Part shown: piece by piece, positions 14 to 57,677 of the stretch | Layout: each line of letters opens with the position of its first letter | Position numbering within the stretch: position 1 is the first letter of the stretch | Assembly: GCA_963711835.1 (NCBI GenBank) | Contig: CAVQFQ010000016.1 | Location: 86,359 to 150,358, forward strand | DNA length: 64,000 bases | DNA from: an uncultured delta proteobacterium | Lineage (GTDB): Bacteria; Desulfobacterota; RBG-13-43-22 | Reading direction: 5' to 3' | Position numbers and translations under genes: made by a program | Notes under the pieces: generated by a model | Databases searched by the model: none | What the model saw: only the letters and a program-made list of their open reading frames with translations | What the model was told of the DNA's origin: nothing

Positions 14-1378
14 TTATGCCTCCTTTTTTTGATAATGCTTTTCCCAGGCCGCATCGGCCAATTCCCCATAACGCGCGGCAAACTGATCGATCTCCGGGGC
101 CAGATCGGAAAAGATAGTTTCCGCGCCGGGATGGGTAAAATGGGCCCCGGTTTCATAGGCCATCCTTCTACCCATATCAGGCCGGTCCACCAGCATGCAG
201 GGCCGGAGCAGGTTTTTCTGTAAAGGCTGCTCGGTCCGGATGGCCTTAAATAGAGGAGAATTTAAGGCCTCCCGAAGGGGGGTCTCTTTGATATTGTGCA
301 TGGCAATATGGCAAAAAACGCAGGGCTCCACGTCCCCCTGGGCATTGATATGAAAATATTTTCGAGCGCCGGAAATGCAGCCGCCGACCACCGGGCCGTC
401 ATTCCAGAAATCGGCTACCAGAATCGGCCGGGTGGCCCTGATTTGGGCCACCCGCTCCCGAAGGGCGTCCCGTTGCTCCGGGGTGGGCATAAGCTGGATG
501 TTGGGTTCCCTGCCGATGGGCAGATACATGAAGAACCAGCCCAATAGGCAACCCTGATCAATAAGAAAGTCCATAAATGGTTCGCTGGTGATGGTATCAT
601 GATTCAGCCGGGTCTGGGTAGCGGAAAAGCCGAAAATAATCCCGGCTTCTTTTAAGCTTTTCATGGCCTGGAGGACCCGCTCAAAATGGCCTGCGCCCCG
701 TCGTTTGTCCGTTTCTTCCTGGAACCCTTCCAGACTGATGGATGGGAGTATATTGCCGCATCGGGCGATCCGCTCCGCCAGGCGCTGGTCGATGAGGCCG
801 CCATGGGTATAGACATGAAAAATCATGTCATGGTGTTGCTCAAAGATGTCAAAAATATCCTGCTTGAAAAAAGGTTCGCCTCCGGAGACCACGCAGGCAT
901 AAATACCCATTTCATTGGCCTGATCCAAGGCCTGGTGGATGATTTTAGTGGGTAATTCTGCCCCCTTATCATAACTCCCGGCATAACAACCGAAACATTT
1001 CAGATTGCATTTCATGGTCGGGCTTATGACCAGAAACCCGGGCGGATAAAAACCTCCCTCCAGTTCTGAAAAGGCCTTCCTTTTGTTGGTCCCTTCCAAT
1101 AACTGGTTGATGATCAGGGTCTGGATGATGGTCTTGCGATGATGGGGATTGGTTCGATAAAGGATTTTCTTGGTTACTTCCAGGCAGGGGTGGTTTTGAT
1201 CGAAAAGGTCCCGGATCCAATTGATCCAGTCGATGTAATAATCCTTTCTGACCAACAGAGCAGCCAGGCGGGCGATCTGGGTGTAGGTCCAGCGAAATTT
1301 TTTTTCATCAGTGGTCCGGGATAAAGCCGCCAGTAAGAGATTGATGCTGTTGGCAATGGCTTGGTTTCTTAGCGACAT
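14..1378 (-). CDS. Radical SAM protein with C-terminal SPASM/twitch-like region
   Basis: CNLKCFGC (CxxxCxxC), SGGEPF, C-terminal GC...GDVEPC...RPC. A further minus-strand ATG at 11-13 with an AAGGAGG RBS shows the operon continues off the window. Confidence 0.9.
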   Translation of the reverse strand: MSLRNQAIANSINLLLAALSRTTDEKKFRWTYTQIARLAALLVRKDYYIDWINWIRDLFDQNHPCLEVTKKILYRTNPHHRKTIIQTLIINQLLEGTNKRKAFSELEGGFYPPGFLVISPTMKCNLKCFGCYAGSYDKGAELPTKIIHQALDQANEMGIYACVVSGGEPFFKQDIFDIFEQHHDMIFHVYTHGGLIDQRLAERIARCGNILPSISLEGFQEETDKRRGAGHFERVLQAMKSLKEAGIIFGFSATQTRLNHDTITSEPFMDFLIDQGCLLGWFFMYLPIGREPNIQLMPTPEQRDALRERVAQIRATRPILVADFWNDGPVVGGCISGARKYFHINAQGDVEPCVFCHIAMHNIKETPLREALNSPLFKAIRTEQPLQKNLLRPCMLVDRPDMGRRMAYETGAHFTHPGAETIFSDLAPEIDQFAARYGELADAAWEKHYQKKEA

Positions 1379-1386
1379 TGGTTATA

Positions 1387-1866
1387 TTATACCGCCTTCC
1401 ATAAATAGGCCAGGGTTTCACCCAGGCCAAGCAAAAGAAAACAACCGACCAAGGACCCGGTTATTAAGATCAGATAAGAAATCTTCTTGGGTATTTTCAG
1501 GGAAAAGGCCATCAATACCCCGCTCCACATCCCGCCCCCCTTTACCGGCATGACCGTGATCAGAAAGACCCCCAGGCCTTTCCAGGCCGACCAGGCCCGC
1601 CAGGCCCAGGATTGTTGTCTTCCCACCCCTTTTTGAGTCAGCCACCGGTTCAATCGGGAAAAACCCGGGAAGCGCACGGCTCCTTCATAGAGCCGATAAA
1701 AAAGAGGGATTTGTAACCCATCCAACAAAACGATCAGGGGTAAAAAAAATAAAAGATTTTGTCCCAGCCACTGGGCACTTAGGATAGCCGCGGTCCGGCC
1801 TCCTAAGACATAAAGGCCGAAAAAATAAAACAGATAGGTTTGCTTAATCCATTCCAGCCATTCCAT
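1387..1866 (-). CDS. Small multi-drug export-like membrane protein
   Basis: Several hydrophobic segments; MPVKGGGMWSG resembles the PLPGTGAWTG family motif. Confidence 0.65.
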   Translation of the reverse strand: MEWLEWIKQTYLFYFFGLYVLGGRTAAILSAQWLGQNLLFFLPLIVLLDGLQIPLFYRLYEGAVRFPGFSRLNRWLTQKGVGRQQSWAWRAWSAWKGLGVFLITVMPVKGGGMWSGVLMAFSLKIPKKISYLILITGSLVGCFLLLGLGETLAYLWKAV

Positions 1867-2057
1867 AAAGGTTTTTGTTGAAGAGGCCTGCGCTCCTGCT
1901 TAATCCTATTCTGTTATAACCTAACCGTCCTAACCATCCATAATCATACTGACTTTACCCAGGCAGCCCCTCCGGTTATAACCATTTATGAGACTGTAAG
2001 TAAGATGGTTTAAGTTTAATTTATAGCCGTCTCTTTTGCAATAAGATTTATCAGGGC

Positions 2058-3248
2058 TTAGGTCCTCTGGATCCGCTCGTGGAGAAGCCGCCGCATGTCC
2101 TGATCATATAATAAGGTGATCAGGGTCAGCAGGCGCCCCAGGACCGGGAGAGGGTCCCCAGATTGGTAAAAATCATGAGCCGTATTTTTATCAAAAAACC
2201 GAAAAAAGGAGGGCTTCATTCGAAAACGTTCAGGATTTTGAATAAAATGAAGTAAATCCCCGGGCAGAATCCAGCGGCAGCGCTTTCCTAAATCATAGCC
2301 TTCCATTTTCTCGATCGGCTGTTCCAAGGCCATTTGAAACAAAAGATAAGGGAAGTCCACCCCGGCATAAACGGCCAGGGGCAATGAACCCCAAAACCGG
2401 GGGTTGATCTCCATCAACTTGGGTCTCCCATCCCTGGGATCATAACGAAATTCCACCATGGCCACCCCAAACCAGCCCAAGGCTCTTAAAAGAGATTCCC
2501 CTAACCGGTGTACTTCCGGGTCGTAACTACTTTCCCGCAAGGTGCTCGGCCCGCCTTTGACAGGATATTCCCGGATGCGTTTATGGATAAAATAGGCCAG
2601 CGGCTCCTGGTCCGGCCCAAATAGGAATGAGGCCCCGAGGGCCTGCCCTCCCGGGGGTATGAATTCTTGAATCAGCGGTAAGGGATATTTCCGATGGACC
2701 TTCTGGTAGGCCGGCCAGAAGTCTTTTTGATCATAGACATAGACGATTCCAGTGGAACCGGAGCCGATGCGGGGTTTGATAACGGCCGGAATCGGAACCT
2801 CCGGAAAAAGGTCCGGGACCGCGTCCAGGCTTTCCGGGAAAAGGGTCTTGGGAATGGGGATTCCGATTTTCAGGGCCAGCCGAAGAACCTCGTCTTTGCG
2901 GCGGGCCTGATCCAGGGCGGAAAAACCGGTGAAGGGAATCCGGGTATGGGGTTCCAGAAGAGAGCGATGCCGGGCGATGAGGAGAGTAGTCTGTTCTTCC
3001 ATAGGGATCAGGACCTCGTAAGCCCGGCTTTTTACTTCCTTGATCAGGGCTTCCAGAAAGGCCTCGGGATGGAAATAGGGGGAAGGATAGACCCATCTCC
3101 GGGAACAATACCGTGAGAAAAAGGAAGTGGCGATGGGAGTACTTTCCCCGACCGTTACCCGGATGCCCCTCCTGCCCAGAGAACGGGTTGCGGCCAGGGT
3201 CTTGGCCCAATGGCCATCCGTCAATAAGACACGGGTTTTATTTCTCAT
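2058..3248 (-). CDS. ATP-grasp domain protein (carboxylate-amine ligase-like)
   Basis: VIKPRIGSGS, IQEFIPG, MVEFR and LMEINPRFWG motifs. Confidence 0.9.
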   Translation of the reverse strand: MRNKTRVLLTDGHWAKTLAATRSLGRRGIRVTVGESTPIATSFFSRYCSRRWVYPSPYFHPEAFLEALIKEVKSRAYEVLIPMEEQTTLLIARHRSLLEPHTRIPFTGFSALDQARRKDEVLRLALKIGIPIPKTLFPESLDAVPDLFPEVPIPAVIKPRIGSGSTGIVYVYDQKDFWPAYQKVHRKYPLPLIQEFIPPGGQALGASFLFGPDQEPLAYFIHKRIREYPVKGGPSTLRESSYDPEVHRLGESLLRALGWFGVAMVEFRYDPRDGRPKLMEINPRFWGSLPLAVYAGVDFPYLLFQMALEQPIEKMEGYDLGKRCRWILPGDLLHFIQNPERFRMKPSFFRFFDKNTAHDFYQSGDPLPVLGRLLTLITLLYDQDMRRLLHERIQRT

Positions 3249-3321
3249 TTTTTAAAGTAAGGCCTATTTTTCAGGCCAATTAACCCTTGAGGATCAATCT
3301 AAACTGTGTTAAGTACTAACT

Positions 3322-3462
3322 AGTTCTCATCCGGACAAGATATTTTCGGCTGAGAGCTGTCAGCGATCAGCTTTTAGCCATCTGCAAAAAATCTTAAAAA
3401 TAATGGTTTAAGCTGACGGCTGAACGCTCCATTCGGAAATCGGAGATTCCCGGATGGACACT
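3322..3462. repeat. Repeat family B, full copy (CATCCGG...CCGGATG ends, internal TCAGC/GCTGA heptamer arms)
   Basis: AGTTCTCATCCGG...CCGGATGGACACT ends; shares blocks with 9521-9568, 39897-40036 and 51588-51635. Confidence 0.7.
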
Positions 3463-3506
3463 GACTAACTTAACACAAAAGCGCCTGAAGGTTAAAAAGG
3501 ATTTTA

Positions 3507-4292
3507 TTGACCAACGAACTTAAAGGCCTGCTCTACCCCTATTTTGCCCCGGAAGAATTTAAGGATCGAACCGCTATCGTGACCGGGGGGTCTCGGGGGA
3601 TTGGAAAGGCCGTTTCTTTGGCCTTATCCTTCCTGGGGGCCAACCTGATAGTGGTTTTTCGGGAAGACCGTCAAGCCGCCCTTTCTCTGAAAGAGACCCT
3701 TGCCGATCAAGGGGGAGCCTGTACCCTGATACAGGGAGATGTCTCCTCACGGGAAACCTGGTTGGAACTGGTCAGGCAGGCCTTGAATCAATGGGGAAGA
3801 ATCGACATCCTGATTAATAATGCCGCCCTGCTCAAAGACCGGTTGTTTCTTTTTCTCCAGGAAAATGACTGGGACCGGGTGCTGGAAATAAATTTAAAAA
3901 GCCTTTACCATGGCTGTCAGGCCGTTATCAAGACCATGATCGGGCAGCGGTTCGGCCGGATTATTAATCTGACTTCTCCCAGCGCCCTGCTGGGGCGGGC
4001 CGGTCAGACCAATTATGCGGCCTCCAAGGGCGGGGTGATCAGTTTTTCCAAATCCCTGGCCCGGGAAGTGGCCCGGGCAGGAATAACGGTCAACTGTGTC
4101 TCCCCCGGGGTGATCCGAACCGATTTATTCCAGCGACTCCCTGAAAAAACGCAACAGGAATTAATTTCCCGGATCCCGGGAGGCCGGACGGGAAAACCGG
4201 AGGAAGTGGCCGGGATTATTTTGTTCCTGGCTTCCCAGCGGTCAAGCTACCTGACCGGCCAGGTTATTGCTGTAGATGGAGGATTGACATAA
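3507..4292 (+). CDS. fabG: 3-oxoacyl-ACP reductase (SDR)
   Basis: TGGSRGIG, INNA, NYAASKGG, GQVIAVDGG; adjacent to ACP; TTG start. Confidence 0.88.
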   Translation: MTNELKGLLYPYFAPEEFKDRTAIVTGGSRGIGKAVSLALSFLGANLIVVFREDRQAALSLKETLADQGGACTLIQGDVSSRETWLELVRQALNQWGRIDILINNAALLKDRLFLFLQENDWDRVLEINLKSLYHGCQAVIKTMIGQRFGRIINLTSPSALLGRAGQTNYAASKGGVISFSKSLAREVARAGITVNCVSPGVIRTDLFQRLPEKTQQELISRIPGGRTGKPEEVAGIILFLASQRSSYLTGQVIAVDGGLT

Positions 4293-4297
4293 AAGAC

Positions 4298-4597
4298 ATG
4301 ATGGAAACCAAAACACCGGACTGGAGTAAGGATACGCCCGGACTGATAGTCTTTCTTAAGAAGATAATCATCGAATCCCTCAAACTGGAAGACCTTGATC
4401 CCGAGGAGATCAAGGAAGAGGACCCCCTTTTCGGTGAGGGACTCGGGTTGGATTCCCTGGACGCCCTGGAGCTGGTGGTGGCTGTTGAGAAATATTTTGG
4501 AGTAGTCATCGAGAATGAAGACCAGGGCAAAGAGGCCTTCGTCTCCATAGTCGGCTTAGCCCGGTATATTCAGCGGGAAGCGGCCGGCCGACCATGA
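4298..4597 (+). CDS. Acyl carrier protein
   Basis: LFGEGLGLDSLDALEL phosphopantetheine Ser motif; acidic. Confidence 0.92.
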   Translation: MMETKTPDWSKDTPGLIVFLKKIIIESLKLEDLDPEEIKEEDPLFGEGLGLDSLDALELVVAVEKYFGVVIENEDQGKEAFVSIVGLARYIQREAAGRP

Positions 4598-5022
4598 ACT
4601 GGGTGGAAACCGAGGTTAAGGTCCGTTTCGAGGAAGTAGATCTCTGGCAGATAGTCTGGTACGGCCATTACCTCTCTTACTTTGAAGTGGCCCGGATGAC
4701 CCTTCTGGAAAAATTCGGCCTCCTGATAGAAAAGGTGGCCATGTTGGGCTTCAGGACCCCCCTGGTCACCTTGAAGTGCCAATTCAAAAATTCGGCCCGC
4801 TTCAACGATACCCTTCGGGTCAAGGCGGCGGTCCTGCCTTCTGAAACGGCCTCCCTGACCTTCCTTTTTGAAATTCATCGGCCTTCCGATCAGACGCTGA
4901 TCGCCCAGGGGGAAACCACTCATGTCCTTCAGGATAAGGATGGCAAAATGATTTATAAGTTCAGCGGGGCCTTGAGGGAAAAAATAGAAGCTATGGTGGC
5001 CTATTGCAATTCCCCCGGCTAA
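4594..5022 (+). CDS. Acyl-CoA/ACP thioesterase (YbgC/4HBT hotdog)
   Basis: VRFEEVDLWQIVWYGHYLSYFEVAR motif; ATGA overlap with ACP. Confidence 0.88.
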   Translation: MNWVETEVKVRFEEVDLWQIVWYGHYLSYFEVARMTLLEKFGLLIEKVAMLGFRTPLVTLKCQFKNSARFNDTLRVKAAVLPSETASLTFLFEIHRPSDQTLIAQGETTHVLQDKDGKMIYKFSGALREKIEAMVAYCNSPG

Positions 5023-5034
5023 GGCAGGTGTCGC

Positions 5035-6288
5035 TTGCCCCCTCTTTTACCTCTGCTCCGCCTCTCCCTCTCCCAGTTATCCTATTATAAAAGCCGCTAC
5101 CTGATCATGGGTCTGCTGCTGGTTTCAGGGTCTTTGATCCTCTTCCTTTCATTGAGCTATCTTGTTTCCGTCCAGGCTTCCATCCGGGAAGGGCTGGTTT
5201 CCAGACTGACCGGGCACCTGCAACTTTATAACCCGGCGGTTAAAGAGGTATCTTTCTATCAGGATCCAACGGGGCAGATCCCCTGGATTCAGGACCCGGA
5301 AGCGCTGGAAAGGATCCTTACAGCGGTCCCGGGGTTGGCCGGTTTCACCAAAAGGATCCTGGTCGGCGGCCTGCTCCAGAAAGGGGACCGGTCCATGGGG
5401 GCCTTAGTGGCCGGAATGGAGATGAATAAAGAGATCGCCCTCAGGGGGAAAATTTCTCCTCTTTCCCTTTCGGGGATGATCTCCATCCGGGAAGGGGAGG
5501 TCTTGCTCGGAAAAGGGGTAGCCAAGGTTTTACGGGTGGCCCCAGGCGAAAAGATCCCTCTGCTGGTCCCCAATGAATCCGGCTTTATCAGCGGCCGGCG
5601 ATTTCTGGTCAGGGGTTTATTCAGCACCCCGGGTCTGGATCCCGTTGCCGAACTCTTTGTTTACCTGAACTTGTCGGATCTCCAGCATTTATTAGGTCTG
5701 GAAAAGGAAGTGGGCCATTTCGTCCTTTTTGCCGAAAAGGAAACCCGGATAAATTCCCTGACGGCTTCTCTGGCCCATCGCTTTAAAGCGCTTCACCTGC
5801 CGGTCAGCCTCTTTACCTGGGACGAGATCGGGAAACCTTTCTTAGGGATTTTAAGTCTGAGCCAAATTTTTTTCGGCCTGACCAACCTTCTTATCCTGAT
5901 TATCATCGCCCTCACGGTTGTCAATTCCACCCTGATGAACCTCTTTGAAAGGATGCCGGAACTGGGCACCCTCTTAACTCTGGGGACGAAAAGAAGCCAG
6001 CTTTTTATTTTTCTCGGGGGCGAAATTATTCTCTTTGGATCAGCAGCCGCCGTGGCGGGTTTGTTTCTGGGATGGATTTTGAGCACGATCCTGGGGCAAT
6101 GGGGACTTCCAGCCCTGAATCCGGCCATGGCCATGGCTTTCGGCCAGGAACGATTATACTTCAAAACCAATATCTGGGTCTGGCTCTTGTCTTTTGGGGC
6201 TTCCTTTCTGTTTTTAGTGCTCTCGGTCGGGGTCCCGATAAGCCGGGCCTGCCGTCTGAATCCGGCCGAGGTCTTAAAAGAGAGATGA
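5035..6288 (+). CDS. ABC permease, FtsX/LolE-like
   Basis: N-terminal TM, GHLQ, periplasmic domain, ERxxELGTL...G, three C-terminal TMs. Confidence 0.88.
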   Translation: MPPLLPLLRLSLSQLSYYKSRYLIMGLLLVSGSLILFLSLSYLVSVQASIREGLVSRLTGHLQLYNPAVKEVSFYQDPTGQIPWIQDPEALERILTAVPGLAGFTKRILVGGLLQKGDRSMGALVAGMEMNKEIALRGKISPLSLSGMISIREGEVLLGKGVAKVLRVAPGEKIPLLVPNESGFISGRRFLVRGLFSTPGLDPVAELFVYLNLSDLQHLLGLEKEVGHFVLFAEKETRINSLTASLAHRFKALHLPVSLFTWDEIGKPFLGILSLSQIFFGLTNLLILIIIALTVVNSTLMNLFERMPELGTLLTLGTKRSQLFIFLGGEIILFGSAAAVAGLFLGWILSTILGQWGLPALNPAMAMAFGQERLYFKTNIWVWLLSFGASFLFLVLSVGVPISRACRLNPAEVLKER

Positions 6289-7523
6289 AGGCCTTTCTTT
6301 TTACAAAAATGGCCTGGAATAATCTCCGGCGATACCGGCGACGGACGATCCTGGTGGGGTTGACCATCCTGCTCTCATCGGCGGTCTTAATTTTTAACAA
6401 CTCGCTCGGAAACGGCATAGAGGAACAGTTGATCCAGAACATGGTTTATATCCAGACCGGGCATATTGTTTTGACCCCCCAAGCCGACAGCCGGGACCCG
6501 GCCACGGAGACGGTCCGCTGGCAACCTTTACCCCCCGGGCTTAGCACCTTCCTGGCCTCCGATCCCCGTCTGCGCGGCATCCATCCCCGCTTGGAATCGG
6601 CGGCCCTTTTGACCGCCAACAATCAAACCATTACCCGGGCTTTTTTGGTAGGATTTGATCCTCGGGAAGAAGCGGCCTTCTTAAAGACCAGGCTTCCTAT
6701 TTTACAGGGAAGCCCCTTTTTGAGTTCGGCCTCCAAGGCGATCTTCCTTAGCCAGGAATATGCCCGGCGCCTGAAGGTCGGCCTAGGCGATCCGGTAACC
6801 CTGACCATCCATAATCCCCGGGGAGAAACCCGGATGAAGGATTTTCAGCTTGGCGGCCTATTCAGGAAAGCCAATCCCTGGCAGGAGTTTTTTGTTTTCG
6901 CCCCCCTGGATGAGGTTCAGGATCTTTTCGGAACACCGAACCAGATCAGTTCGGTCCGTCTGATTCTGCATAAGGTCCCGGATGTGACTCGGGTCAGAAA
7001 CGATCTCCAGGCTTTTATTACTAAGTGGCAGTTGCCCTGGACGGTCAAAGGTTTTCAGGAAGTGGGGGGGTTCTCTTTGGGTATCATCCAGGCCAATAAT
7101 TTTTCGATTGTCTTGATGGACAGCCTTCTTCTCCTGATAACCGCCATAGGCATCAGTCTGCTGATCCTTTTATCGCTTCAGCTCCGAGTTAAGGAGATGC
7201 GTATACTTTCTTTGCTGGGGACGCCGCCGGGATGGCTTCTTTTCAGCGTAATCCAGGAGGCCCTTTTGTTGGGGCTGCTTTTCGGGGGCCTGGGATTGGT
7301 CATGGGTTGGGGCCTGGCCTGGTATTTTCAAAACACCGGAATCCGGATCACCTCCCTTCCCATTACTTACCTTCTGGGTGGGGATAGCCTGAGGCCCCTG
7401 ATCCGCCTCCAGGGTATGGGAAAGGTTTTTTCCCTCCTCCTGGGGATCTGTTTTTTTTCCGCCCTGCTGCCCATGATCAACCTCCTCTGGGCCTCCTCTA
7501 AAAAAAGGGCCCGATCTGTTTAA
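6285..7523 (+). CDS. ABC permease, FtsX/LolE-like
   Basis: True start MKAFLFTKMAWNNLRRYRRRT at the ATGA overlap (6285); same topology as the upstream permease. Confidence 0.88.
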   Translation: MKAFLFTKMAWNNLRRYRRRTILVGLTILLSSAVLIFNNSLGNGIEEQLIQNMVYIQTGHIVLTPQADSRDPATETVRWQPLPPGLSTFLASDPRLRGIHPRLESAALLTANNQTITRAFLVGFDPREEAAFLKTRLPILQGSPFLSSASKAIFLSQEYARRLKVGLGDPVTLTIHNPRGETRMKDFQLGGLFRKANPWQEFFVFAPLDEVQDLFGTPNQISSVRLILHKVPDVTRVRNDLQAFITKWQLPWTVKGFQEVGGFSLGIIQANNFSIVLMDSLLLLITAIGISLLILLSLQLRVKEMRILSLLGTPPGWLLFSVIQEALLLGLLFGGLGLVMGWGLAWYFQNTGIRITSLPITYLLGGDSLRPLIRLQGMGKVFSLLLGICFFSALLPMINLLWASSKKRARSV

Positions 7524-7527
7524 GGAG

Positions 7528-8289
7528 ATGACCATGTTCAAAAAAAGGAAAAGCCCTGCCTGGGTTCGGTTTGCTTTAGGCCTCCCTGGATTGGTCTTGT
7601 TCCTATTTATGGCTGCCACAACCGTTATGGGAGAGGAAGTTTTGACCAATCCGGAATCCTTGCTGAACCGGTTTAAGCCTCTCGTGGCCCCCGAGACCTT
7701 TAAGGCCGTCCTTCATCTGGAGATTCAGAGACCGGATCGGCCTTTAAAAAAATATGAACTGGTCGTATGGCAGAAATCGCCGGACCTGGTCAAGATCGTC
7801 TTCCAGGCGCCGGCCTCAGAAAAGGGTAAATTTTTGCTCAAAAAAAAGGACCAGGTTTTTTTATCCCTGCCCGACCTGGAGGAGACCATCTTATTATCCC
7901 CGGCCCAGCTCAGCGGCTGGAACTTCTTTTTTGCCGAGAACCTTTTCCCCTTTTATTTTACCAGGGAGATTCTCTGGGGGGAAAGCCGCCATACGCCGGA
8001 GTCCCTGATTCTATCCATAATTCGCAAAACCGACCGCTCCCTTTGGGTGGAAGCCGCCCTTCTTAAACCGCAGGGCCCCTTAACCGGAGTCACTCTTTAT
8101 GAACCCTCGGGTAAAAAAATCCGAACCGTGTCCCTGACCTGGGATTCTTCCGCGGGAAGCGAAAGGCTCAAGGCCCTGAGCATAGAAAATTTTTACCCGG
8201 ACTCTTATCGAGCCAAAATAGGGATCGAAGATCTCCGCACCAGGCCCGTATTTCCGGACCGGTTTTTTGAATTAGGGACAAAGCCGTAA
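7528..8289 (+). CDS. Outer-membrane lipoprotein-sorting (LolA-like) protein
   Basis: Signal peptide, FxAPASEKGxxLL motif, C-terminal FPDRFF; AAGGAG RBS; context. Confidence 0.7.
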   Translation: MTMFKKRKSPAWVRFALGLPGLVLFLFMAATTVMGEEVLTNPESLLNRFKPLVAPETFKAVLHLEIQRPDRPLKKYELVVWQKSPDLVKIVFQAPASEKGKFLLKKKDQVFLSLPDLEETILLSPAQLSGWNFFFAENLFPFYFTREILWGESRHTPESLILSIIRKTDRSLWVEAALLKPQGPLTGVTLYEPSGKKIRTVSLTWDSSAGSERLKALSIENFYPDSYRAKIGIEDLRTRPVFPDRFFELGTKP

Positions 8290-8328
8290 CCCCTTCCCCC
8301 CTTTTCGGGGGAAGGTGGGGATGGGGGC
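8289..8328. repeat. REP-like GC hairpin / possible bidirectional terminator
   Basis: CCTTCCCCC-cttttc-GGGGGAAGG followed by TGGGGATGGGGG between convergent genes. Confidence 0.55.
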
Positions 8329-8359
8329 GGAGGAGCGGATAAGAAGTTCAGTCCCGGAT

Positions 8360-9211
8360 TCAGGATCCGGATGCGGAAACCAGAATCTCGTTTACCCAAT
8401 CCATCATCCTTGGTGTAATCTCGTTGTAAACGACCTGGTAGGCGCGGATTTTTTTACTTAACGAAGTAATGAAGGGAAAGCCGTGGCCGGACAGGTTCCT
8501 GGCATTGACCAGCCGTTGAAGAAGCATGAAAGCCGCTTGGGCCTGGGAGAGAGGCTGGACCCGGAAGGGTTGGTCGGTCTGATATCGGGGAAAGATCAGG
8601 ATCCGAGGGCGTGCCGACCGGCAGATCCCGCCACCCCGGAACAATTCAGGGTCTATCCAGGTCTCACCGCTGAAGAAGGTCTCCGGCGCCTCTCGTCCCT
8701 CTGAAGCCACTTTCTCTTTCCAGGAAAGCCCCGAACCGCCTTTCAAAATGACGGGTCTGGGCAGACCGGATAACACCTCATCTTTTAGACGAACGGCTAT
8801 GATTTCATCGGTCAGGTAATCAAAGCCCGAAGATACCAGTTGGGCGGTCAGGGTTGATTTTCCGCTGCCGCTGTCTCCGCAAAGGATGATCCCCTGTTTG
8901 TCCCTGGCCACCCCGCCGGCATGAAAAACCGCCTGGCCACAGGAATGGGCGATCAGACTGCCTACTGCTTCCTGCATCAATCTCCAGAACAACCGGTCGG
9001 CAGATAAATCGTGGCCTACCAGGATCTCCCCCTTCCAGAGCTCAAAGGTGTCGTCCATCTCTCTGTTGATGTGAAAAATAACCGCCGGGGAGACGGCCCG
9101 GGCCGGCAGGCAATGGCGAAAATGGCGGCCGAGCCGGCTCAGGATAACCGGATCCTGGCCTTCTATTTCCACACTTACCTCGCCGAACTGGAGGACCAGG
9201 GGGTCAGCCAT
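8360..9211 (-). CDS. HPr-kinase-related P-loop kinase
   Basis: FHAGGV, Walker A GDSGSGKST, YLTDE acidic motif; lacks the HprK N-terminal domain. Confidence 0.85.
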   Translation of the reverse strand: MADPLVLQFGEVSVEIEGQDPVILSRLGRHFRHCLPARAVSPAVIFHINREMDDTFELWKGEILVGHDLSADRLFWRLMQEAVGSLIAHSCGQAVFHAGGVARDKQGIILCGDSGSGKSTLTAQLVSSGFDYLTDEIIAVRLKDEVLSGLPRPVILKGGSGLSWKEKVASEGREAPETFFSGETWIDPELFRGGGICRSARPRILIFPRYQTDQPFRVQPLSQAQAAFMLLQRLVNARNLSGHGFPFITSLSKKIRAYQVVYNEITPRMMDWVNEILVSASGS

Positions 9212-9220
9212 GGTTTAGGA

Positions 9221-9493
9221 TCAATCCAGGACCAAGACCCTGGTTTCAACAAAAAGCTGCAGGGTCTCATTCACATCCTCTTTAATCTGCTCGGCGGACT
9301 CCGGATAGGCTTCGCTCAGGAGCTGCTTGATCTCAGCTACGGTTCGTTGACCGTCACAGAGTTTCCAGATCAAAGCGGCGCTGGGGTTGCTGTGCAGGAC
9401 CTGGGTGCTGTCCGGATGAATAAGGACCAATTCGCCTTCCATGATTTCGGCTTGGCAATCAGGAACAGGCCTGGGACGGGCGGTTTCCAGCAT
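9221..9493 (-). CDS. PqqD-family / RiPP recognition element (RRE) protein
   Basis: NPSAALIWKLCDGQRTVAEI...L...YPE...DV motif; start moved to ATG 9493 (GGAGG RBS). Confidence 0.9.
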   Translation of the reverse strand: MLETARPRPVPDCQAEIMEGELVLIHPDSTQVLHSNPSAALIWKLCDGQRTVAEIKQLLSEAYPESAEQIKEDVNETLQLFVETRVLVLD

Positions 9494-9520
9494 AGGTTCC
9501 TCCTCAGGGAGCATTCGGCC

Positions 9521-9568
9521 GTCAGCAGACAGCACGCATCCGGAAAAGATCTTTTCCGGATGGACACT
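9521..9568. repeat. Repeat family B, partial copy
   Basis: CATCCGGAAAAGATCTTTTCCGGATGGACACT perfect hairpin. Confidence 0.65.
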
Positions 9569-9611
9569 AATTTAATTAAATTCTTTATAAATCGCAACCG
9601 GAAAGACCTTT

Positions 9612-10697
9612 TCAATGAATCAAAGGCAGGGATACTTTGGAAGCCAGGCGACCGTAAAGACGCCGCAGGACAAATTTAAAGAGAAAGAGAGGATGTTTGA
9701 CCCAGCGGGCGGTGAAAAGAGAACGGCCGGGGGCAAGGCCATAGTAAAGGTGGAGCCACCATTCCGAGGGAAAGAGGGTTTCCTTTAAAAATCCCCAAAG
9801 CCCTAAGTTCTTCCATTGCCGGAAGGTGATGCGGGGCCAGCCCTTGAATTCCTGTCCTATGTCTTTAGGGGCCTCCCCCGGTTTGATGGAAAACCGCTTG
9901 ACCAGTTTTTCAGAAAGAGGGCTGAGGCAGTGAAACAGGGATAGGATTCCCTGGAGGGAGGGAAGCATTTGAATCAATCGCTCCCAGTCCATCTCGTCCT
10001 CAAACTGCTCACTTATATTTATCAAATCGGTTAAAGCGATGAGCCGGGCCTGTTCGACGGCCATGTGCCGGTAGATATGTCGGAACATATCCTCCAGGGC
10101 CAGGGTGTGGGCCGTGAGCCCTTCGAAAGAAAATGGCCTGGCCCTGGCCATAAGATCGTCCACCAAAGGTTGCCCGGGGTCCCATTCCTCTTCAATAAGG
10201 CTAAAATGGACCTCCAGGGTCATTTCATAGCCGCTTACGCGGGAGGTAAGGGCCGGAAGGTGCTTTGAAGATCTGGGCTTTTTTAATTCGGCAGGATGGA
10301 CGGTAAAGCCCAAGTCGCCCAGCAGGATTTCCATGACCGGGGCCTGGCTGGGATGGACCAGCAGATCCAGATCGCGCATGGGGCGCAGACCCGGTTCCGG
10401 ATAGACCAGATGGAATAAGGCGGCCCCCTTGAGCAGGATCAACTGCACCCCGGCCTTTTCACAGGCTGGTATAATTTTGGTCAGAAGACCGGTGCGGATC
10501 TGGTTGGCCTGGCGGTGACGCAAGGTGAGGGCCTGCAGTTGACGGCGAGTAGTTTCGGGAATTTCAAGGCCGGCATTACGGCAGTGGAAATAAAAAAGGG
10601 GGGCCATCCCCTGCTCTTCGGCAAAGGGGATGAGATTTACCCATTGGGAGAATCCCTGGAATTGTTCTTTTAATAACAGACCCTGCACCCGGTCCAA
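9612..10697 (-). CDS. Nucleotidyltransferase family protein (NTP_transf_5-like)
   Basis: LLKGAAL...YPEPGLRPMRDLDLLV and LEVH motifs; start uncertain because the frame stays open upstream (ILIPCARSKL). Confidence 0.85.
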   Translation of the reverse strand: MDRVQGLLLKEQFQGFSQWVNLIPFAEEQGMAPLFYFHCRNAGLEIPETTRRQLQALTLRHRQANQIRTGLLTKIIPACEKAGVQLILLKGAALFHLVYPEPGLRPMRDLDLLVHPSQAPVMEILLGDLGFTVHPAELKKPRSSKHLPALTSRVSGYEMTLEVHFSLIEEEWDPGQPLVDDLMARARPFSFEGLTAHTLALEDMFRHIYRHMAVEQARLIALTDLINISEQFEDEMDWERLIQMLPSLQGILSLFHCLSPLSEKLVKRFSIKPGEAPKDIGQEFKGWPRITFRQWKNLGLWGFLKETLFPSEWWLHLYYGLAPGRSLFTARWVKHPLFLFKFVLRRLYGRLASKVSLPLIH

Positions 10698-10762
10698 CTT
10701 CGACCGGGCACAGGGTATTAAAATCTTAAACAGTGATTCCGTCTTAGTAAAGAAAGCGGCAA

Positions 10763-11371
10763 TTACCTGCGGCGCATCGGTGATTTTTGACCACCAATTA
10801 TTGAACGGATACCGCTAGTTGGCGTAATCGTCCCCACTGGAAACTCAACGTTACAGATGTTGTAACCGGTTGACGTACTTGCAGCAGTTAAAGTTATCGT
10901 AAAAGTTTGGGTAATGGCCCGGGCTTTTACCCGGACCGTACACGGGGTAGAGGTGGCGGGGACAGCGTCGCTACTATAATAGACGAGGTATATCTGGTAG
11001 ATGCCAGCCGCCGTATTATTGATGGGAACAAAGATGTTCTCGGGGCCAAGCCCGCAGGTATTATCAAAGTCTAACGTTGCTGTTGGTCCAACTTTATTTG
11101 CATAATAAACATGAGCTCCAAGCGGTTCGATGACATGAAGGTCAATATCAACCGACGAACCTACACAGGTTGGATCTCCGGTAGTCCAGGTCAAAGTGGC
11201 CTGAAAATCACCGGTCCCCAAAGAGGCCTGGGCAAAGGCCGGCAGGGCGCCTATGCCGACTACGGGCTTTTCCCAGCCGGGCAATAGGGAAATGGTCGTG
11301 GCCCCGGCGGCGGCGGATAAAACTTTAAGAGCCTTACGACGTGACATGGATTGGTCTTTTGGTTCGCTCAT
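10763..11371 (-). CDS. Tat-signal secreted protein with WxxPxV...LPAxAQAS leader and YfaP/DUF2135-like domain
   Basis: SRRKALK twin-arginine motif; LTW...DIDLHVIEP...LDFDN..G.GPENI domain; Thr/Ser-rich; strong AAGGAGG RBS. Confidence 0.8.
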   Translation of the reverse strand: MSEPKDQSMSRRKALKVLSAAAGATTISLLPGWEKPVVGIGALPAFAQASLGTGDFQATLTWTTGDPTCVGSSVDIDLHVIEPLGAHVYYANKVGPTATLDFDNTCGLGPENIFVPINNTAAGIYQIYLVYYSSDAVPATSTPCTVRVKARAITQTFTITLTAASTSTGYNICNVEFPVGTITPTSGIRSIIGGQKSPMRRR

Positions 11372-11514
11372 CGTATCCTCCTTTAAAAAAATAGTTGTAC
11401 CTATTAGAATTTAAAATATAACCTTTCAGGCTTCTTTATATTAAAATCAACTAAAAATCAAGTCAAATTTTTGAAAAGTATACATTTTTTTTAAATCCTT
11501 CTTGGGATCCCTTG

Positions 11515-11708
11515 GTATCTCTTCCCCTCTCCGAGGCGGGATTGAGGGCAAGGGATTGAGGCCGATCAAACAACCTATTTGACAGCGGACCCGAAAAAAA
11601 ACTATAGTTCTTTTTCGGCCATAAAAACCCTCTGTCCATTTTCACTAACACGCTTGTATCTCTTCCCCTGCCCGATGGGCACGAAGGGAAGGGAAATTAA
11701 GGGGGAAA
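11515..11708. repeat. Two REP-like direct repeats (GTATCTCTTCCCCT...GGG(C/A)AGGGA)
   Basis: GTATCTCTTCCCCT at ~11516 and ~11656, each followed by a complementary G-rich arm. Confidence 0.55.
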
Positions 11709-11785
11709 GGTGTTTATTATAGGATCCGGGCTGATAACTATTATTTTTTAATAAATCCAAACTCTTACGATAATTTTAGCGCATT

Positions 11786-12457
11786 ATGGAGATCGTCCGA
11801 TTAGAAGAAGTTTCTAAAGAATATGTTCTTAAGGGAGAAACCATCCGGGTTTTAAGCCGGGTATCGTTTACCGTCCAATCCGGAGAATTTGTGGCCCTCA
11901 TGGGACCCTCGGGGAGCGGGAAAACCACCCTGCTGCACCTGATCGGCTGTGTGGATCTGCCCACCTCGGGCCGCATCAGCCTGGGAGGCCAGGAAACCTC
12001 AGCCTTAAACCCGGCCCGGTTGGCGGAGATTCGATTAAATCGGCTGGGCTTTATATTCCAGGCCTTCAATTTATTACCGGCCATGACGGTCCTGGATAAT
12101 TGCGCCTATCCCTTGATTCTACAGGGGGTCCCTTTTCGGGAAAGAAAGCAGAGGGTGGAGGCCATGCTTTCCCGGGTGGGCCTGGCCCATCGTCTGAAAC
12201 ACAGGCCCGAAGACCTCTCGGGAGGGGAGCAGCAAAGGGCGGCCATTGCCCGGGCCTTGGTCACCCGACCGCTCTTGGTCCTGGCCGATGAACCGACGGC
12301 CCACCTGGATGCCGAAACCGGCCAGGAGATCATCGACCTGATGTACCGCCTGAACCGGGAGGAAAAGATAACCTTTCTATTCGCCACCCACGACCCGGCC
12401 ATCCTGACCCAGGCCGGTCGTATCCTCAAACTGTCCCAGGGGAGAATTACAGAGTAG
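11786..12457 (+). CDS. ABC transporter ATP-binding protein (LolD-like)
   Basis: GPSGSGKTT, LSGGEQQR, LADEPT, ATHD. Confidence 0.93.
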   Translation: MEIVRLEEVSKEYVLKGETIRVLSRVSFTVQSGEFVALMGPSGSGKTTLLHLIGCVDLPTSGRISLGGQETSALNPARLAEIRLNRLGFIFQAFNLLPAMTVLDNCAYPLILQGVPFRERKQRVEAMLSRVGLAHRLKHRPEDLSGGEQQRAAIARALVTRPLLVLADEPTAHLDAETGQEIIDLMYRLNREEKITFLFATHDPAILTQAGRILKLSQGRITE

Positions 12458-53480: not shown

Positions 53481-56400
53481 GTGGAAAAGCGGGGACGTTT
53501 AATCTTTAGGAGTTTGTTATGGGCGCTGATTGTCCTGTCCTGGGGAATTGACCTGGGCCAGGCGGCACCAGTACTCAATCCGGGTGTTGATTTGTCAAAA
53601 CCTAATTTTGCCTACAGCCCGCCACTGAGGAAATTTATTGACTCACTGCCGGGCCTGGGGGCAGGTGCGCGACCTGCGGGCTCCGCCCTCGGTGCCAGCA
53701 CCCTCGGACAGTATATCCCTATTGCCACCGCGGGAGTGCTCCCAGGCTTCCCGAATGATGATTATTACGAAATCGCTTTAGTTGAGTATCACGAGCAAAT
53801 GCATCGGGACCTTCCTCCGGTAACCGGGACTTGGCCGAATCAGACCGGCGGCACCAAACTGCGGGGTTATGTGCAGGAAATTAACGGCCTTGCTGTCGGC
53901 ACGCCCCATTATCTGGGACCTTTGATTATTGCCACGAAGGACCGGCCGGTACGCATCAAGTTTACCAACCGGCTTCCCCTCACTGCCGCCGGAGGCAATC
54001 TCTTCCTGCCGGTCGACACGACCATCATGGGGGCGGGAGAGGGTCCCCAGCACGCTGATGGAAGTCCTTGCAACCCGGCGACAGAGGTTTGTGCCAGTTA
54101 CACCCAGAACCGGGCCACCATCCATCTCCATGGCGGCCTCCCGCCGTGGATCAGCGATGGGACGGCCCACCAGTGGATTACCCCTGCCGGAGAACCGACC
54201 CCCTACCTTAAAGGTGCAAGCCAGCAGAACGTACCCGACATGGGAGTGCAACCCGACGGGTCGGCGACCTTTTACTGGCCCAACCAACAGAGCGGCCGGC
54301 TGATGTTCTACCATGATCATGCCCTCGGCCTGACCGGACTCAATGTCTATGCCGGCGAGGCCGCCGGTTACCTGTTGGTTGACCCGGCCGAAGAAACCGC
54401 GCTGGTTGCTGCCGGCGTCCCCGGGACCACCGCAGATTTACCACACCTTATTCCTCTGGTCATCCAGGACAAGACCTTCGTGCCCGACCCCGCCACACTG
54501 GCCCTTACGGATCCTCTCTGGGATACGGTCCATTGGGGCGGAATGGGCAATCTCTGGTTCCCCCATGTTTACATGCCGAACCAGGACCCGACTGATGACC
54601 ACAGTGGAGCGAATCCTCTGGGCCGGTGGGACTATGGTCCATGGTTCTGGCCGGTTTTCCCCGTGGAATCGCCTTACCCGCCGGCCGTGTCTCACGTGCC
54701 CGAAGCCTTCATGGACACGCCGGTGATCAACGGCACCGCCTACCCCTACCTCGACGTGAATCCCCAAGCCTACCGGTTACAGATCCTGAATGCCTGCAAT
54801 GACCGAATGGTCAACCTGCAGTTGTATCAAGCCGACCCGGCCGTTACCGTCGGATCCGCCGGTCATACGGAAGTCAAAATGGTGCCGGCGGAGTTGAACC
54901 CGTTGATCCCCTTTCCGGACGCCTGGCTGGCACAAACCCCGGGAATGATACCTGACATACTGGACAGTAGAGTTGGAGGTGTGCCCGATCCGACCTTGCG
55001 AGGCCCCGCCATGATCCAGATCGGCACCGAGGGCGGTCTCCTGCCGGGGCCGGTGGTCCTCCCCAACACGCCGGTCGGCTATGAGCAAAACAAGAGAAAC
55101 ATTGTGGTGTTGAATGTCTTGGAAAAGACCCTAATGTTGGCGCCGGCAGAACGGGCGGACGTCATCATTGACTTCAGCCCCTATGCCGGTAAAACCATTA
55201 TTCTCTATAACGACTCGCCCGCACCTGTCCCGGCCGGTGACCCCCGTTACGACTTTTATACGGGCAACCTGGATTATTCGGCAACAGGCGGTGCGAACAA
55301 TCAAGGCGGGGCCCCCTCCACCGTGGCCGGCTTCGGCCCCAATACCCGGACCATTATGCAATTCCGGGTGGCGGGAAACGATCCCGCGCCGGCAACCCCG
55401 GGTCCCGTTGATTACTACAACCCGGGCCTTCTGACCGCGTTGACCACATCCTTGCCGGCGATCTTCAAGGCGGCTCAAGATCCGCCCGTTGTGCCCGAAT
55501 CGGTTTATAATGCGATCGGCTACACGGGGGGTTCCACCAGCGATACGTTTGCCACCATCCAGGGCCACTACTTGACCTTTACTCCCTACGGGTCAACCAC
55601 CCCGACAACTATGCCTATTAAGAATAAGGCCATTCAGGAGCTTTTTGATCCTGAGGGGCGGATGAACGCCACCCTTGGGGTTGAACTGCCGTTTACCGGT
55701 GCCTTGATCCAGACAACGGTTCCTTTAGGGTTCATTGATCCGAACACCGAGACCCTCGCCGCCGGCCAGACCCAGCTTTGGAAGATTACCCATAACGGTG
55801 TTGACACCCACGGCATCCACTTCCACCTGGTCAACGTGCAGGTGGTTAACCGGGTCGGCTGGGATGGGGCCATAAGAACGATCGACCCCAACGAACTGGG
55901 CTGGAAGGATACCGTCCGGATGAACCCGCTGGAAGATATCATTGTGGCCATGCGGGCCAAGGTTCCTACCGGGATCCCCTTCGCGGTTCCCAACAGCCTT
56001 CGCCCCCATGCTCCGGCCCTGCCGGTGGGCTCCACCTTCCCCAGCTTAGACCCCTTAACGGGTAATCCAATTACCGTCACCAACGCCATAACCGACTTTG
56101 GTCACGAGTACACCTGGCACTGCCACATTTTGGGCCATGAAGAAGACGATATGATGCGCCCGCTTGTCTTGCAAGTGCCGACTGCCGTACCGGCTGCCAT
56201 TGCAGACCTTACCGCCACCCCTACCGCGCCAGGGCCCGTCGATCTCACCTGGACATATATTTCAGAGAATGAGATCGGTTTCCGGATGGAGCGATGCACC
56301 GGTGCTGGCTGCAGCAATTTTGCGACCATCGTAACGGTCAATTTAAACCCGACCACTTATACCGACGCTACGGTTGTTCCAGGCACGACGTACAGTTATC

Positions 56401-57677
56401 GTATCGTGGTCTTCAACTCGGTTGGCGATTCCCCCCCGGTGTCGAACACAGCCACAGTAACCGTACCCGCAGTGACCGCACCGGCAGCGCCGACGAATTT
56501 GACCGCCACGGCGTCGCCCTTAAGCTCGAACCCTCCAACGGTGGCCCTCGTCTGGACGGACAACTCCAACAACGAGATGAACTTCACTATCGAGAGGGCG
56601 ACGGATGCCGGCTTCACCGTGGGACTAACAACCTTCCAGGTGGCCGCAAACGTAACGGCCTTCACCGACACGACGGTGGCCGCGACGACGCCCTACTGGT
56701 ACAGGGTGCGGGCCGTTAATTTGGGCGGCCCTTCGGCCAATGCCGTTGCCGGACCGGTCACCACGCCGGGCTTGCTCCCGGCGGCGCCGACCAACCTGGG
56801 CGCCACCGCGGTAGGCCCCCCGCTGCAGGTCGACCTCCTTTGGACGGATAATTCAACCAATGAAACCGGTTTCCGGATCGAGCGGGCTGTTGGCGCCGGC
56901 GCTTTTGCGGCCCTGACAACCACCCTACCGAACGTGACGGGCTATAGTGACACTACGGTAACTCCAGGCACGCCCTATTCCTATCGCGTGTTCGCCGTCA
57001 ATGCCTTCGGGGATTCATCGCCGTCCAATACCATTGTCATCGGGGTCCCAACGGCGCCGACCAATCTGGTGGCCACGGCGTCTGCCCTCAATGCGACTCC
57101 CCCAACCGTAAGTTTGACCTGGACTGACAACTCCAGCAATGAGAGCAACTTCAGGATCGAGAGGGCAACGGATGCCGGCTTTACCGTGGGACTAACAACT
57201 GTCACAGTTGGAGCCAACGTGACGGCCTTTACCGATACGACGGTTATACCGCTCACGCAGTACTTCTATCGGGTCATCGCCTTCAACGCTCTCGGGGATT
57301 CGCCGCCGTCCAATACCGCCACGGCCACTACAACGGCCGTGATGTTGCAGGCGCCGACTAATCTGGTAGCGACGGCATCTGCCCCAGGAACGTTCCCCAT
57401 ATCGGTGAGTTTGACCTGGACCGATGCCCTTAACGAGACCAGCTTCATTATCCAGAGGGCTACGGATGCCGGATTCACTGTAGGGCTAATCACCTTCACG
57501 GTTGGAATGAACGTGACGGCTTATACCGACACGGCGGTTGCACCGACGACGACGTATTGGTATCGTGTCATTGCTTTGAACACTATCGGTAGTTCGTCGC
57601 CTTCGAACAGTGCAACGGTAACAACCCCATTTGGACCAACTTATCTCCCATTAATTCTCAGCCAATTATTTCTATAA
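53481..57677 (+). CDS. Large secreted multicopper oxidase with five FN3 domains
   Basis: HLHG, FYHDH, HGIHFH, WHCHILGHEEDDMM copper motifs; five P.APT.L...L.W.D...E..F.IER...Y.YRV repeats; GGAGG RBS, GTG start. Confidence 0.93.
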   Translation: MEKRGRLIFRSLLWALIVLSWGIDLGQAAPVLNPGVDLSKPNFAYSPPLRKFIDSLPGLGAGARPAGSALGASTLGQYIPIATAGVLPGFPNDDYYEIALVEYHEQMHRDLPPVTGTWPNQTGGTKLRGYVQEINGLAVGTPHYLGPLIIATKDRPVRIKFTNRLPLTAAGGNLFLPVDTTIMGAGEGPQHADGSPCNPATEVCASYTQNRATIHLHGGLPPWISDGTAHQWITPAGEPTPYLKGASQQNVPDMGVQPDGSATFYWPNQQSGRLMFYHDHALGLTGLNVYAGEAAGYLLVDPAEETALVAAGVPGTTADLPHLIPLVIQDKTFVPDPATLALTDPLWDTVHWGGMGNLWFPHVYMPNQDPTDDHSGANPLGRWDYGPWFWPVFPVESPYPPAVSHVPEAFMDTPVINGTAYPYLDVNPQAYRLQILNACNDRMVNLQLYQADPAVTVGSAGHTEVKMVPAELNPLIPFPDAWLAQTPGMIPDILDSRVGGVPDPTLRGPAMIQIGTEGGLLPGPVVLPNTPVGYEQNKRNIVVLNVLEKTLMLAPAERADVIIDFSPYAGKTIILYNDSPAPVPAGDPRYDFYTGNLDYSATGGANNQGGAPSTVAGFGPNTRTIMQFRVAGNDPAPATPGPVDYYNPGLLTALTTSLPAIFKAAQDPPVVPESVYNAIGYTGGSTSDTFATIQGHYLTFTPYGSTTPTTMPIKNKAIQELFDPEGRMNATLGVELPFTGALIQTTVPLGFIDPNTETLAAGQTQLWKITHNGVDTHGIHFHLVNVQVVNRVGWDGAIRTIDPNELGWKDTVRMNPLEDIIVAMRAKVPTGIPFAVPNSLRPHAPALPVGSTFPSLDPLTGNPITVTNAITDFGHEYTWHCHILGHEEDDMMRPLVLQVPTAVPAAIADLTATPTAPGPVDLTWTYISENEIGFRMERCTGAGCSNFATIVTVNLNPTTYTDATVVPGTTYSYRIVVFNSVGDSPPVSNTATVTVPAVTAPAAPTNLTATASPLSSNPPTVALVWTDNSNNEMNFTIERATDAGFTVGLTTFQVAANVTAFTDTTVAATTPYWYRVRAVNLGGPSANAVAGPVTTPGLLPAAPTNLGATAVGPPLQVDLLWTDNSTNETGFRIERAVGAGAFAALTTTLPNVTGYSDTTVTPGTPYSYRVFAVNAFGDSSPSNTIVIGVPTAPTNLVATASALNATPPTVSLTWTDNSSNESNFRIERATDAGFTVGLTTVTVGANVTAFTDTTVIPLTQYFYRVIAFNALGDSPPSNTATATTTAVMLQAPTNLVATASAPGTFPISVSLTWTDALNETSFIIQRATDAGFTVGLITFTVGMNVTAYTDTAVAPTTTYWYRVIALNTIGSSSPSNSATVTTPFGPTYLPLILSQLFL

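Follow-up and report, generated by a model that had tools for sequence, protein, structure and literature searches.

A twin-arginine leader gene beside a recognition element, a kinase and a nucleotidyltransferase: a candidate protein-tagging cassette in an uncultured deltaproteobacterium

We analyzed a 64,000-nucleotide stretch of DNA from an uncultured deltaproteobacterium (GCA_963711835.1, contig CAVQFQ010000016.1, positions 86,359 to 150,358), referred to below as the window, and in particular its positions 8360-11371, which four minus-strand open reading frames (ORFs) fill as one cassette of about 3 kb (Table 1). The genes encode a 202-residue protein with a twin-arginine translocation (Tat)-type signal, an NTP_transf_5 nucleotidyltransferase, a stand-alone RRE/PqqD protein (RRE, recognition element of RiPPs, the ribosomally synthesized peptides that are modified post-translationally) and an HprK-like kinase. 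The same four co-oriented genes had been named in an initial annotation made from the sequence letters, and all four were confirmed at those positions.

Table 1. Features of the cassette (window positions)
Feature	Position	Strand	Basis
Precursor gene, 202 residues: leader (residues 1-50) and beta-sandwich cargo	10763..11371	-	ORF, homologs
Precursor ribosome-binding site, AAAGGAGG	ahead of the ATG of the 10763..11371 gene	-	sequence
Twin arginine R11-R12 (S-R-R-K-A-L-K), ahead of an uncharged h-region	11336..11341	-	RR in 103/103 motif matches
W33-x-x-P36-x-V38, RRE-binding-type motif in the signal c-region	11258..11275	-	W and P invariant
A45-F46-A47, predicted signal peptidase I site	11231..11239	-	A-x-A in 47/49 family members; cleavage inferred
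Ser50, predicted phosphorylation site; +3 from the predicted cut, W+17	11222..11224	-	S/T conservation, LPP S3 precedent
YfaP/DUF2135-like cargo, predicted beta-sandwich with weak TerD-like fold; interchangeable	10802..11221	-	model, structure comparison
NTP_transf_5 nucleotidyltransferase	9612..10742 (called start 10697; homology to ~10742)	-	E 2e-40; intact LKG and D-x-D
15-bp hairpin just past the precursor gene; called transferase TTG in the loop	10680..10716	-	z -5.2; 0/200 shuffles as stable
Stand-alone RRE/PqqD, ~90 residues	9221..9493	-	PqqD E 1.5e-16; LppB-type Asn and Asp
HprK-like kinase	8360..9211	-	invariant H97, G117-K118 P-loop, D135-E136
Extent of the inserted block	8290..11785		flanks: LolA-like gene 7528-8289, ABC ATPase gene 11786-12457

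The three enzyme genes carried intact motifs. His97, the P-loop and Asp135-Glu136 of the kinase were invariant in 11 homologs, and LKG and D-x-D of the transferase were invariant or intact in 13. The RRE ORF spans 9535-9221, with its likely start at the ATG at 9493 after GAGGAGG. The closest precedent for such a set is the linear polyphosphorylated peptide (LPP) system, lppA-K-B-S-D-N of Paenibacillus alginolyticus (PMC13381572, 2026), which was absent from the comparisons made in the initial annotation. The profile of the window RRE matched the LppB structure 9x8z (E 1e-5), and of the two residues equal to the leader-binding pair of LppB, Asp was found in 12/12 RREs and Asn in 10/12. RRE and kinase were single-copy in the genome, and the transferase had one further weak match, below the cut-off.

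The flanks of the cassette are an ATP-binding cassette (ABC) transporter operon of opposite orientation, which the block interrupts. When 20 relatives of the same family were searched, the LolA-like gene lay directly upstream of the orthologous ATPase gene in 6/6, with gaps of 29 nt in four and of 232 and 320 nt in two. Because the flanking genes adjoin in all six, exactly four genes are present here as a single insert, as read from the sequence; neither terminal repeats nor mobile-element genes were seen at its borders.

The first 50 residues of the 202-residue protein form the conserved part of its family. A leader profile matched 734 clusters at 50% identity (E up to 1e-10), and in the best 150 of the 734 the conserved stretch began at RR, took in W-x-x-P and ended with L-P-A-x-A-Q-x-S, the consensus behind the RR signal being WxxPxVxxGxLPAxAQxS. 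Trp and Pro were invariant in 48 homologs and in 150/150 profile matches. The DNA pattern W-x-x-P-x4-G-x-L-P-A-x-A-Q, which includes neither RR nor the Ser, gave at least 117 distinct matches, namely 104 RR-type leaders, 10 off-target matches and 3 incomplete ones; counts from this pattern, here and below, are among the matches listed. RR was found in 103/103 leaders when these were defined by the hydrophobic stretch alone, and 149/150 leaders passed a TatFind-like rule. The Tat model TIGR01409 matched 54/60 leaders; the window leader scanned alone passed it narrowly (16.9 bits, cut-off 16.7) and has Ala at the F position of the S/T-R-R-x-F/L-L-K motif. Compared with solved chains, the profile matched no LppA or PbaA leader and only weak Tat signals (E 0.09-5).

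Two tatC genes and one bacterial signal peptidase I gene are present in the source genome, TatC was found in 5/5 leader-bearing genomes tested, and 295/310 leaders had A-x-A-like sites. These features suggest that the signal peptide of the first protein probably doubles as the RRE leader, and that the general Tat system and signal peptidase I of the cell probably stand in for a peptidase and an exporter of the cassette's own. Signal peptidase had already been put forward as the leader peptidase, a proposal that probably holds. Tat export of the product appears likely, and cleavage at A-x-A fairly likely. The same recognition and Ser phosphorylation could also act on a protein that is never released, either because its RR-hydrophobic segment stays uncleaved in the membrane and anchors it there or because it remains cytoplasmic. 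About a dozen leaders that clearly lost A-x-A yet keep RR, WxxP and Ser would fit such a fate, as would Pfam and NCBIfam Tat scores close to their cut-offs, but it is made unlikely by the A-x-A, RR and TatFind-like counts given above, by TatC in every genome tested, and by the few named cargoes (Flg_new_2, CarboxypepD_reg) and frequent Thr-Pro linkers, which look extracellular. Leaders with A-x-A lost and RR, WxxP and Ser retained occurred at loci L273 (7751-13227), L014 (7869-8579), L015 (5872-8651) and L016 (7833-8495), frequently as three or four tandem copies, and are possibly uncleaved, membrane-anchored forms.

The cargo behind the leader was far more variable. The 202-residue protein had no Pfam match; YfaP/DUF2135 was the name given in their sources to 4/57 homologs, PF09906 was matched by 4 others, and nothing useful was found in the YfaP/DUF2135 literature. 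In the predicted structure, the predicted local distance difference test (pLDDT) score was mostly 83-98 over cargo residues 51-190, and the leader was of low confidence. Comparison with TerD gave Z scores of 10.3 (2qz7; root-mean-square deviation 3.7, 136 aligned) and 9.4 at 8-11% identity, and Foldseek a template modeling (TM) score of 0.44; a TerD-like fold in this model says nothing on function. A search of the ESM Atlas gave no usable match. The Thr/Ser richness named in the earlier description is moderate, Ser plus Thr making up 22% of the mature domain and 13-28% across the family. Among leader proteins, 143 cargoes of at least 40 residues fell into 53 unrelated groups, 43 of them singletons, some cargoes were only a few residues long, and a Pfam match lay within the cargo in only 4/141.

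The leader and the enzymes were found together. At 25 loci of the cargo domain, RRE, kinase and transferase adjoined 11 of the 12 leader-bearing copies (with a fragmented transferase at one) and none of the 13 leaderless copies; because of this difference, we conclude that the leader, and not the cargo, is tied to the enzymes. An identical leader type on an unrelated cargo again adjoined the trio. All four genes stood together at 28 distinct loci in 10 arrangements. In the source phylum, a full leader was present in 3/301 genomes, all three with the trio, and a further 23 genomes had a TIGR04352-like kinase without this leader, many of them showing other precursor types; among other genomes of the family, only 1/20 had the leader, its trio within about 5 kb. 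In the Chloroflexota class of an Anaerolineaceae genome, 12/251 genomes matched the leader, 11 at full length; the twelfth match was partial, lacked the Ser and lay beside an RRE fusion. All 11 full-leader genomes fell among the 12 of the 251 with a kinase above 230 bits, and in the twelfth of these an RR leader and its cargo, again this domain, had an RRE fused ahead of them. A second RRE-leader fusion adjoined a second-tier kinase. Among metagenome leader loci of at least 3 kb (matches listed), 10/19 had all three enzymes, compared with 0/5 off-target loci having any. A quick tree of 63 kinases placed 34 leader-associated rows and the window kinase in one clade (Shimodaira-Hasegawa-like approximate likelihood ratio test, SH-aLRT, 98), and none of the 28 rows outside it had the leader; many rows had been fetched via the leader, and LppK and PadeK were absent from the tree.

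On this evidence, and as had been proposed, the trio very probably acts on the product of the first gene. It might instead merely travel with enzymes whose true substrate is a metabolite, a polysaccharide or an undetected peptide, since kinase and transferase families of these kinds also act on small molecules (a FomB match among them) and short precursors of other kinds serve the remaining HprK/RRE clades. The ten gene orders, the two RRE-leader fusions (L013 and L290), the clade-level tracking, the one-block insertion and an upstream gap without any motif-bearing short ORF make this very improbable. The claim that the enzymes are aimed at the Thr/Ser-rich folded domain fared worse. Decoration of many Thr and Ser residues of the 150-residue domain would account for the Ser and Thr content and for T53, T97 and T145, which are 98-100% conserved in the leader-bearing family, but it sits poorly with a domain that occurs without the enzymes at all 13 leaderless loci, with cargoes as unrelated and at times as short as those above, with conservation that ends right after one invariant Ser50, and with LppK and PadeK, which modify one Ser; we regard it as improbable.

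Several arrangements around these genes were recorded separately. The fusions L013 (7719-8525) and L290 (8504-9772) lack the Trp, keep P-x-V/I and have Ser 15 residues past the Pro. One genome carries a duplicated cassette (L001 and L002), with the second transferase in three pieces, and L266 (2237-4042) holds a transferase-kinase fusion ORF. A second Tat/RRE leader design, adjoining other HprK clades, was seen at L098 (5954-6151), L099 (9110-9445), L100 (8942-9124) and L281 (3168-3383); here a Y-x-x-P-like motif stands right after the RR region and before the hydrophobic stretch, and a Ser often follows A-x-A by two or three residues. A conserved family of short precursors with a YxxP leader and then G-P-A-Q-T/A-C lay beside RRE and HprK-like genes at L104 (6636-6746), L107 (7931-8047), L108 (4855-5061), L111 (4678-4974), L115 (9234-9338), L116 (9332-9445) and L118 (623-733). 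L106 showed a third precursor type in two tandem copies.

The candidate target residue was examined in the pattern matches, whose definition leaves the Ser free. Ser or Thr stood at W+17, two residues past the Gln, in 101/104 leaders (79 Ser and 22 Thr, with Leu in the other 3), compared with 42, 12 and 26 of 104 at the neighboring positions W+16, W+18 and W+19 and with 0/10 off-target matches. All 49 family members had Ser or Thr at the Ser50 position. The Ser was kept in 14/15 leaders failing the A-x-A test, in a profile that includes the Ser column, and a control of ordinary Tat proteins had Ser at +3 in 3/15 by crude cleavage calls. This pattern makes phosphorylation of Ser50 quite likely. 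The trio could otherwise act as an export control that leaves no decorated product; the RRE would then serve as chaperone of the Tat signal peptide, and a phosphate or nucleotide added reversibly beside the cleavage site would time export or cleavage. HPr kinase is a regulatory kinase/phosphorylase, which would suit such a role, and so would a Ser three residues from the predicted cut and an arbitrary cargo. The poor cleavage of the unphosphorylated LPP precursor (PMC13381572) points the same way. PadeK, PsmK/PsmN and LppK, however, leave a stable phosphate or hexose-phosphate on their products, and leaders whose cleavage site is gone still keep the Ser, so that control of export in place of tagging seems unlikely.

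A complex of the window RRE with the leader was predicted, as the initial annotation had advised, with a score of 0.59 compared with 0.00 for the best of three controls, contact agreement of at least 83% among runs, and partner pLDDT of at least 62. The mark used was reached by 116/157 solved pairs and 2/215 mismatched pairs, and the range up to 0.60 holds only 18/157 solved pairs and both mismatches that passed; the outcome lends the complex weak support and lies where mismatches also pass. The prediction may also be memory because like complexes have already been solved. RREs with the LppB-type Asn/Asp also accept Trp leaders (PMC13381572). RRE binding at WxxP, in which Trp and Pro are invariant, appears likely.

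We propose that the cassette is an LPP-type protein-tagging module, and assign the full mechanism a probability of about 60%. Tat carries folded proteins. In the cytoplasm, during folding of the cargo, the RRE would dock on W33-x-x-P36-x-V38 of the twin-arginine signal, the kinase would (poly)phosphorylate Ser50, and the nucleotidyltransferase would possibly cap the Ser50 phosphate with a hexose or nucleotide. Tat would then export the folded protein and housekeeping signal peptidase I would cut after Ala47, giving an exported protein that starts Gln-Ala-phosphoSer. The tag may serve to attach the protein to the surface or to have it glycosylated further, which is a guess.

A number of observations weigh against this proposal. 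At the twelfth leader-bearing locus, L016, no enzymes lie upstream, and the contig ends 330 nt past the gene. No enzyme match of at least 50 bits was found at 6/19 leader loci of 3 kb or more (matches listed). In several genomes, leader genes stand on contigs without the trio, requiring action in trans; such orphan leader genes with unrelated cargo were seen at L265, L267, L268, L270 and L274-L277 in genomes with a kinase elsewhere, and action in trans is therefore suggested for them. Conversely, two genomes with short contigs, G341 and G437, have second-tier kinases and strong transferases, and the leader was not found in them. The genome counts are not fully independent, two Chloroflexota genomes having supplied model rows and the profiles stemming from kin of the genomes counted. 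Thr occupies the site in 22/104 and Leu in 3/104 leaders (matches listed), and LppK refuses Thr. No precedent for a WxxP inside the c-region of a Tat signal was found in the literature. Transferase homology begins about 15 codons before the called TTG, where no ATG, GTG or TTG is present. Deletion of lppN, the NTP transferase gene of LPP, was without effect (PMC13381572), and no sugar-supplying gene was conserved near related cassettes (102 neighbor ORFs). The transferase step is uncertain because the lppN deletion changed nothing, and we put hexose or nucleotide capping at about even odds. The transferase start anomaly recurs in a relative (L159) and, together with the hairpin, may reflect a non-standard start or translational control; the hairpin may favor expression of the precursor over that of the enzyme.

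If the proposal is right, it gives a substrate and a precise target residue to an RRE-kinase-nucleotidyltransferase trio that is widespread and had no explanation, places a working RRE motif within a Tat signal, and extends LPP chemistry, whose core was already published in 2026, beyond the peptides of Bacillota to folded proteins that are exported. A self-contained block of only 3 kb makes it easy to test the function of NTP_transf_5, which LPP leaves unresolved, and the leader could tag recombinant proteins for site-specific phosphorylation and export. A broader reading, which we hold only tentatively and think doubtful, is that the 50 leader residues act as a portable sorting tag joining RiPP-style recognition with Tat export, so that any fused folded domain, those of orphan genes included, would be phosphorylated, capped with a sugar or nucleotide at Ser+3 and exported. 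If true, RiPP parts would make up a general pathway, with hundreds of cargoes, that phosphoglycosylates proteins N-terminally or anchors them at the surface.

The surroundings of the cassette were also surveyed. For 20 related cassettes, 102 of 119 picked neighbor ORFs were used (the other 17, being shadow or cut ORFs, were left out), and at a threshold of E 1e-12 they included no fifth conserved gene, no polysaccharide, exosortase, glycosyltransferase or peptidase neighbors, and no LppS-type peptidase. In the 89%-complete genome, neither the lasso B2 peptidase family nor the archaeal-type signal peptidase (TIGR02228) had a match. The initial statement that lasso cyclase and B2 peptidase are lacking agrees with this for the peptidase; Asn_synthase-family genes do occur in the genome, the nearest more than 50 kb from the cassette. 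In the interrupted operon (14-8289 and 11786-12457), a cluster of acyl-carrier, ketoreductase and thioesterase genes is joined by a LolCDE-like ABC system and the LolA-like protein, and a radical SAM gene is close by. The ATPase gene of the operon is split off by the insertion and has a sigma-70 promoter close to consensus (11579-11608). A 1398-residue multicopper-oxidase-like ORF (53481-57677; PhsA-like match far below cut-off) lies in a higher-GC stretch near resistance-nodulation-division (RND) efflux genes. In three sediment metatranscriptome runs of one study, fractions of 0.14, 0.05 and 0.02 of the words were present. Short contigs of relatives covered parts of all four genes and were set aside as expression evidence, as DNA carry-over is possible.

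LPP, stated to be restricted to Bacillota, is the system most like the cassette. In LPP, the RRE recognizes YxxP, cleavage ahead of A-Q-S falls to a dedicated signal peptidase, and polyphosphorylation by the kinase is confined to S3, with S3T and S3Y left unmodified (PMC13381572). Both have a separate RRE, a kinase of the HprK-like type and an NTP transferase without a macrolactam cyclase, a conserved [Y/W]xxPxV leader ahead of highly variable C-termini (35-200 residues in LPP), a signal-peptidase-type cut (predicted here), and a Ser at +3, which lies 18 residues from the aromatic residue in LPP and 17 here; the window RRE keeps N33 and D70 of LppB. They differ in that LPP has a dedicated archaeal-type signal peptidase (LppS) and an MsbA-like exporter, both missing from the block, an MsbA-like gene being near 1/20 related cassettes. 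The LPP leader, YxxPxVLxHQxIxFETxxS, corresponds to WxxPxVxxGxLPAxAQxS behind RR here in xxPxV and the final Ser. LPP sits in a capsule-locus context, whereas no polysaccharide context surrounds these cassettes, whose cargoes are mostly folded domains (median 118 residues) and whose hosts include Chloroflexota and Myxococcota. Because peptidase, exporter and consensus all differ, the cassette appears to work like LPP without being a member. The main text of PMC13381572 contains neither "Tat" nor "twin-arginine" and the six supplements searched do not contain "twin-arginine"; no description of a Tat-leader form was found in the literature, where coverage of subscription papers is thin.

The phospho-lasso systems paeninodin and pseudomycoidin (PMC8498205, PMC6993621) share with the cassette a WxxP leader, a B1-type RRE, an NTP transferase and an HprK-like kinase whose target, predicted in the case of the cassette, is a single Ser. 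PadeK, reviewed with the PsmK-type lasso kinases, modifies one Ser (PMC8498205), and pseudomycoidin requires PsmN to carry one or two hexoses on its phosphoSer (PMC6993621). These systems have a macrolactam cyclase and a B2 peptidase, which the cassette lacks, and their Ser ends the peptide, whereas the cassette Ser directly follows the leader of a protein-sized substrate. HPr-rel-A systems have the same three enzyme types adjoining, as on the Vibrio plasmid NZ_CP032095.1 with an RR-bearing 270-residue gene upstream. Membership in HPr-rel-A, a type mentioned in the initial annotation, did not hold up: the kinase scored 101.6 bits against a TIGR04352 cut-off of 200 and falls in a separate clade with different leaders, and for the cassette RRE no match to TIGR04353, the PqqD model of HPr-rel-A, was among the seven listed.

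Bufferins (PMC11626156) and RiPP-lipoproteins (PMC13056109) are RiPP substrates with housekeeping signal peptides that use Sec or lipoprotein routes, and like the route proposed here they combine cytoplasmic modification with subsequent housekeeping export and signal peptidase; some of the substrates are folded or larger than 30 kDa. Their chemistry is that of multinuclear nonheme iron-dependent oxidative enzymes (MNIOs), and the bufferin signal is dispensable for modification (PMC11626156), whereas the cassette would use phosphate-based chemistry with the RRE motif within a Tat-type signal. Compared with all of these, the cassette is likely a coherent, undescribed variant of LPP-type systems that works at protein scale on one serine.

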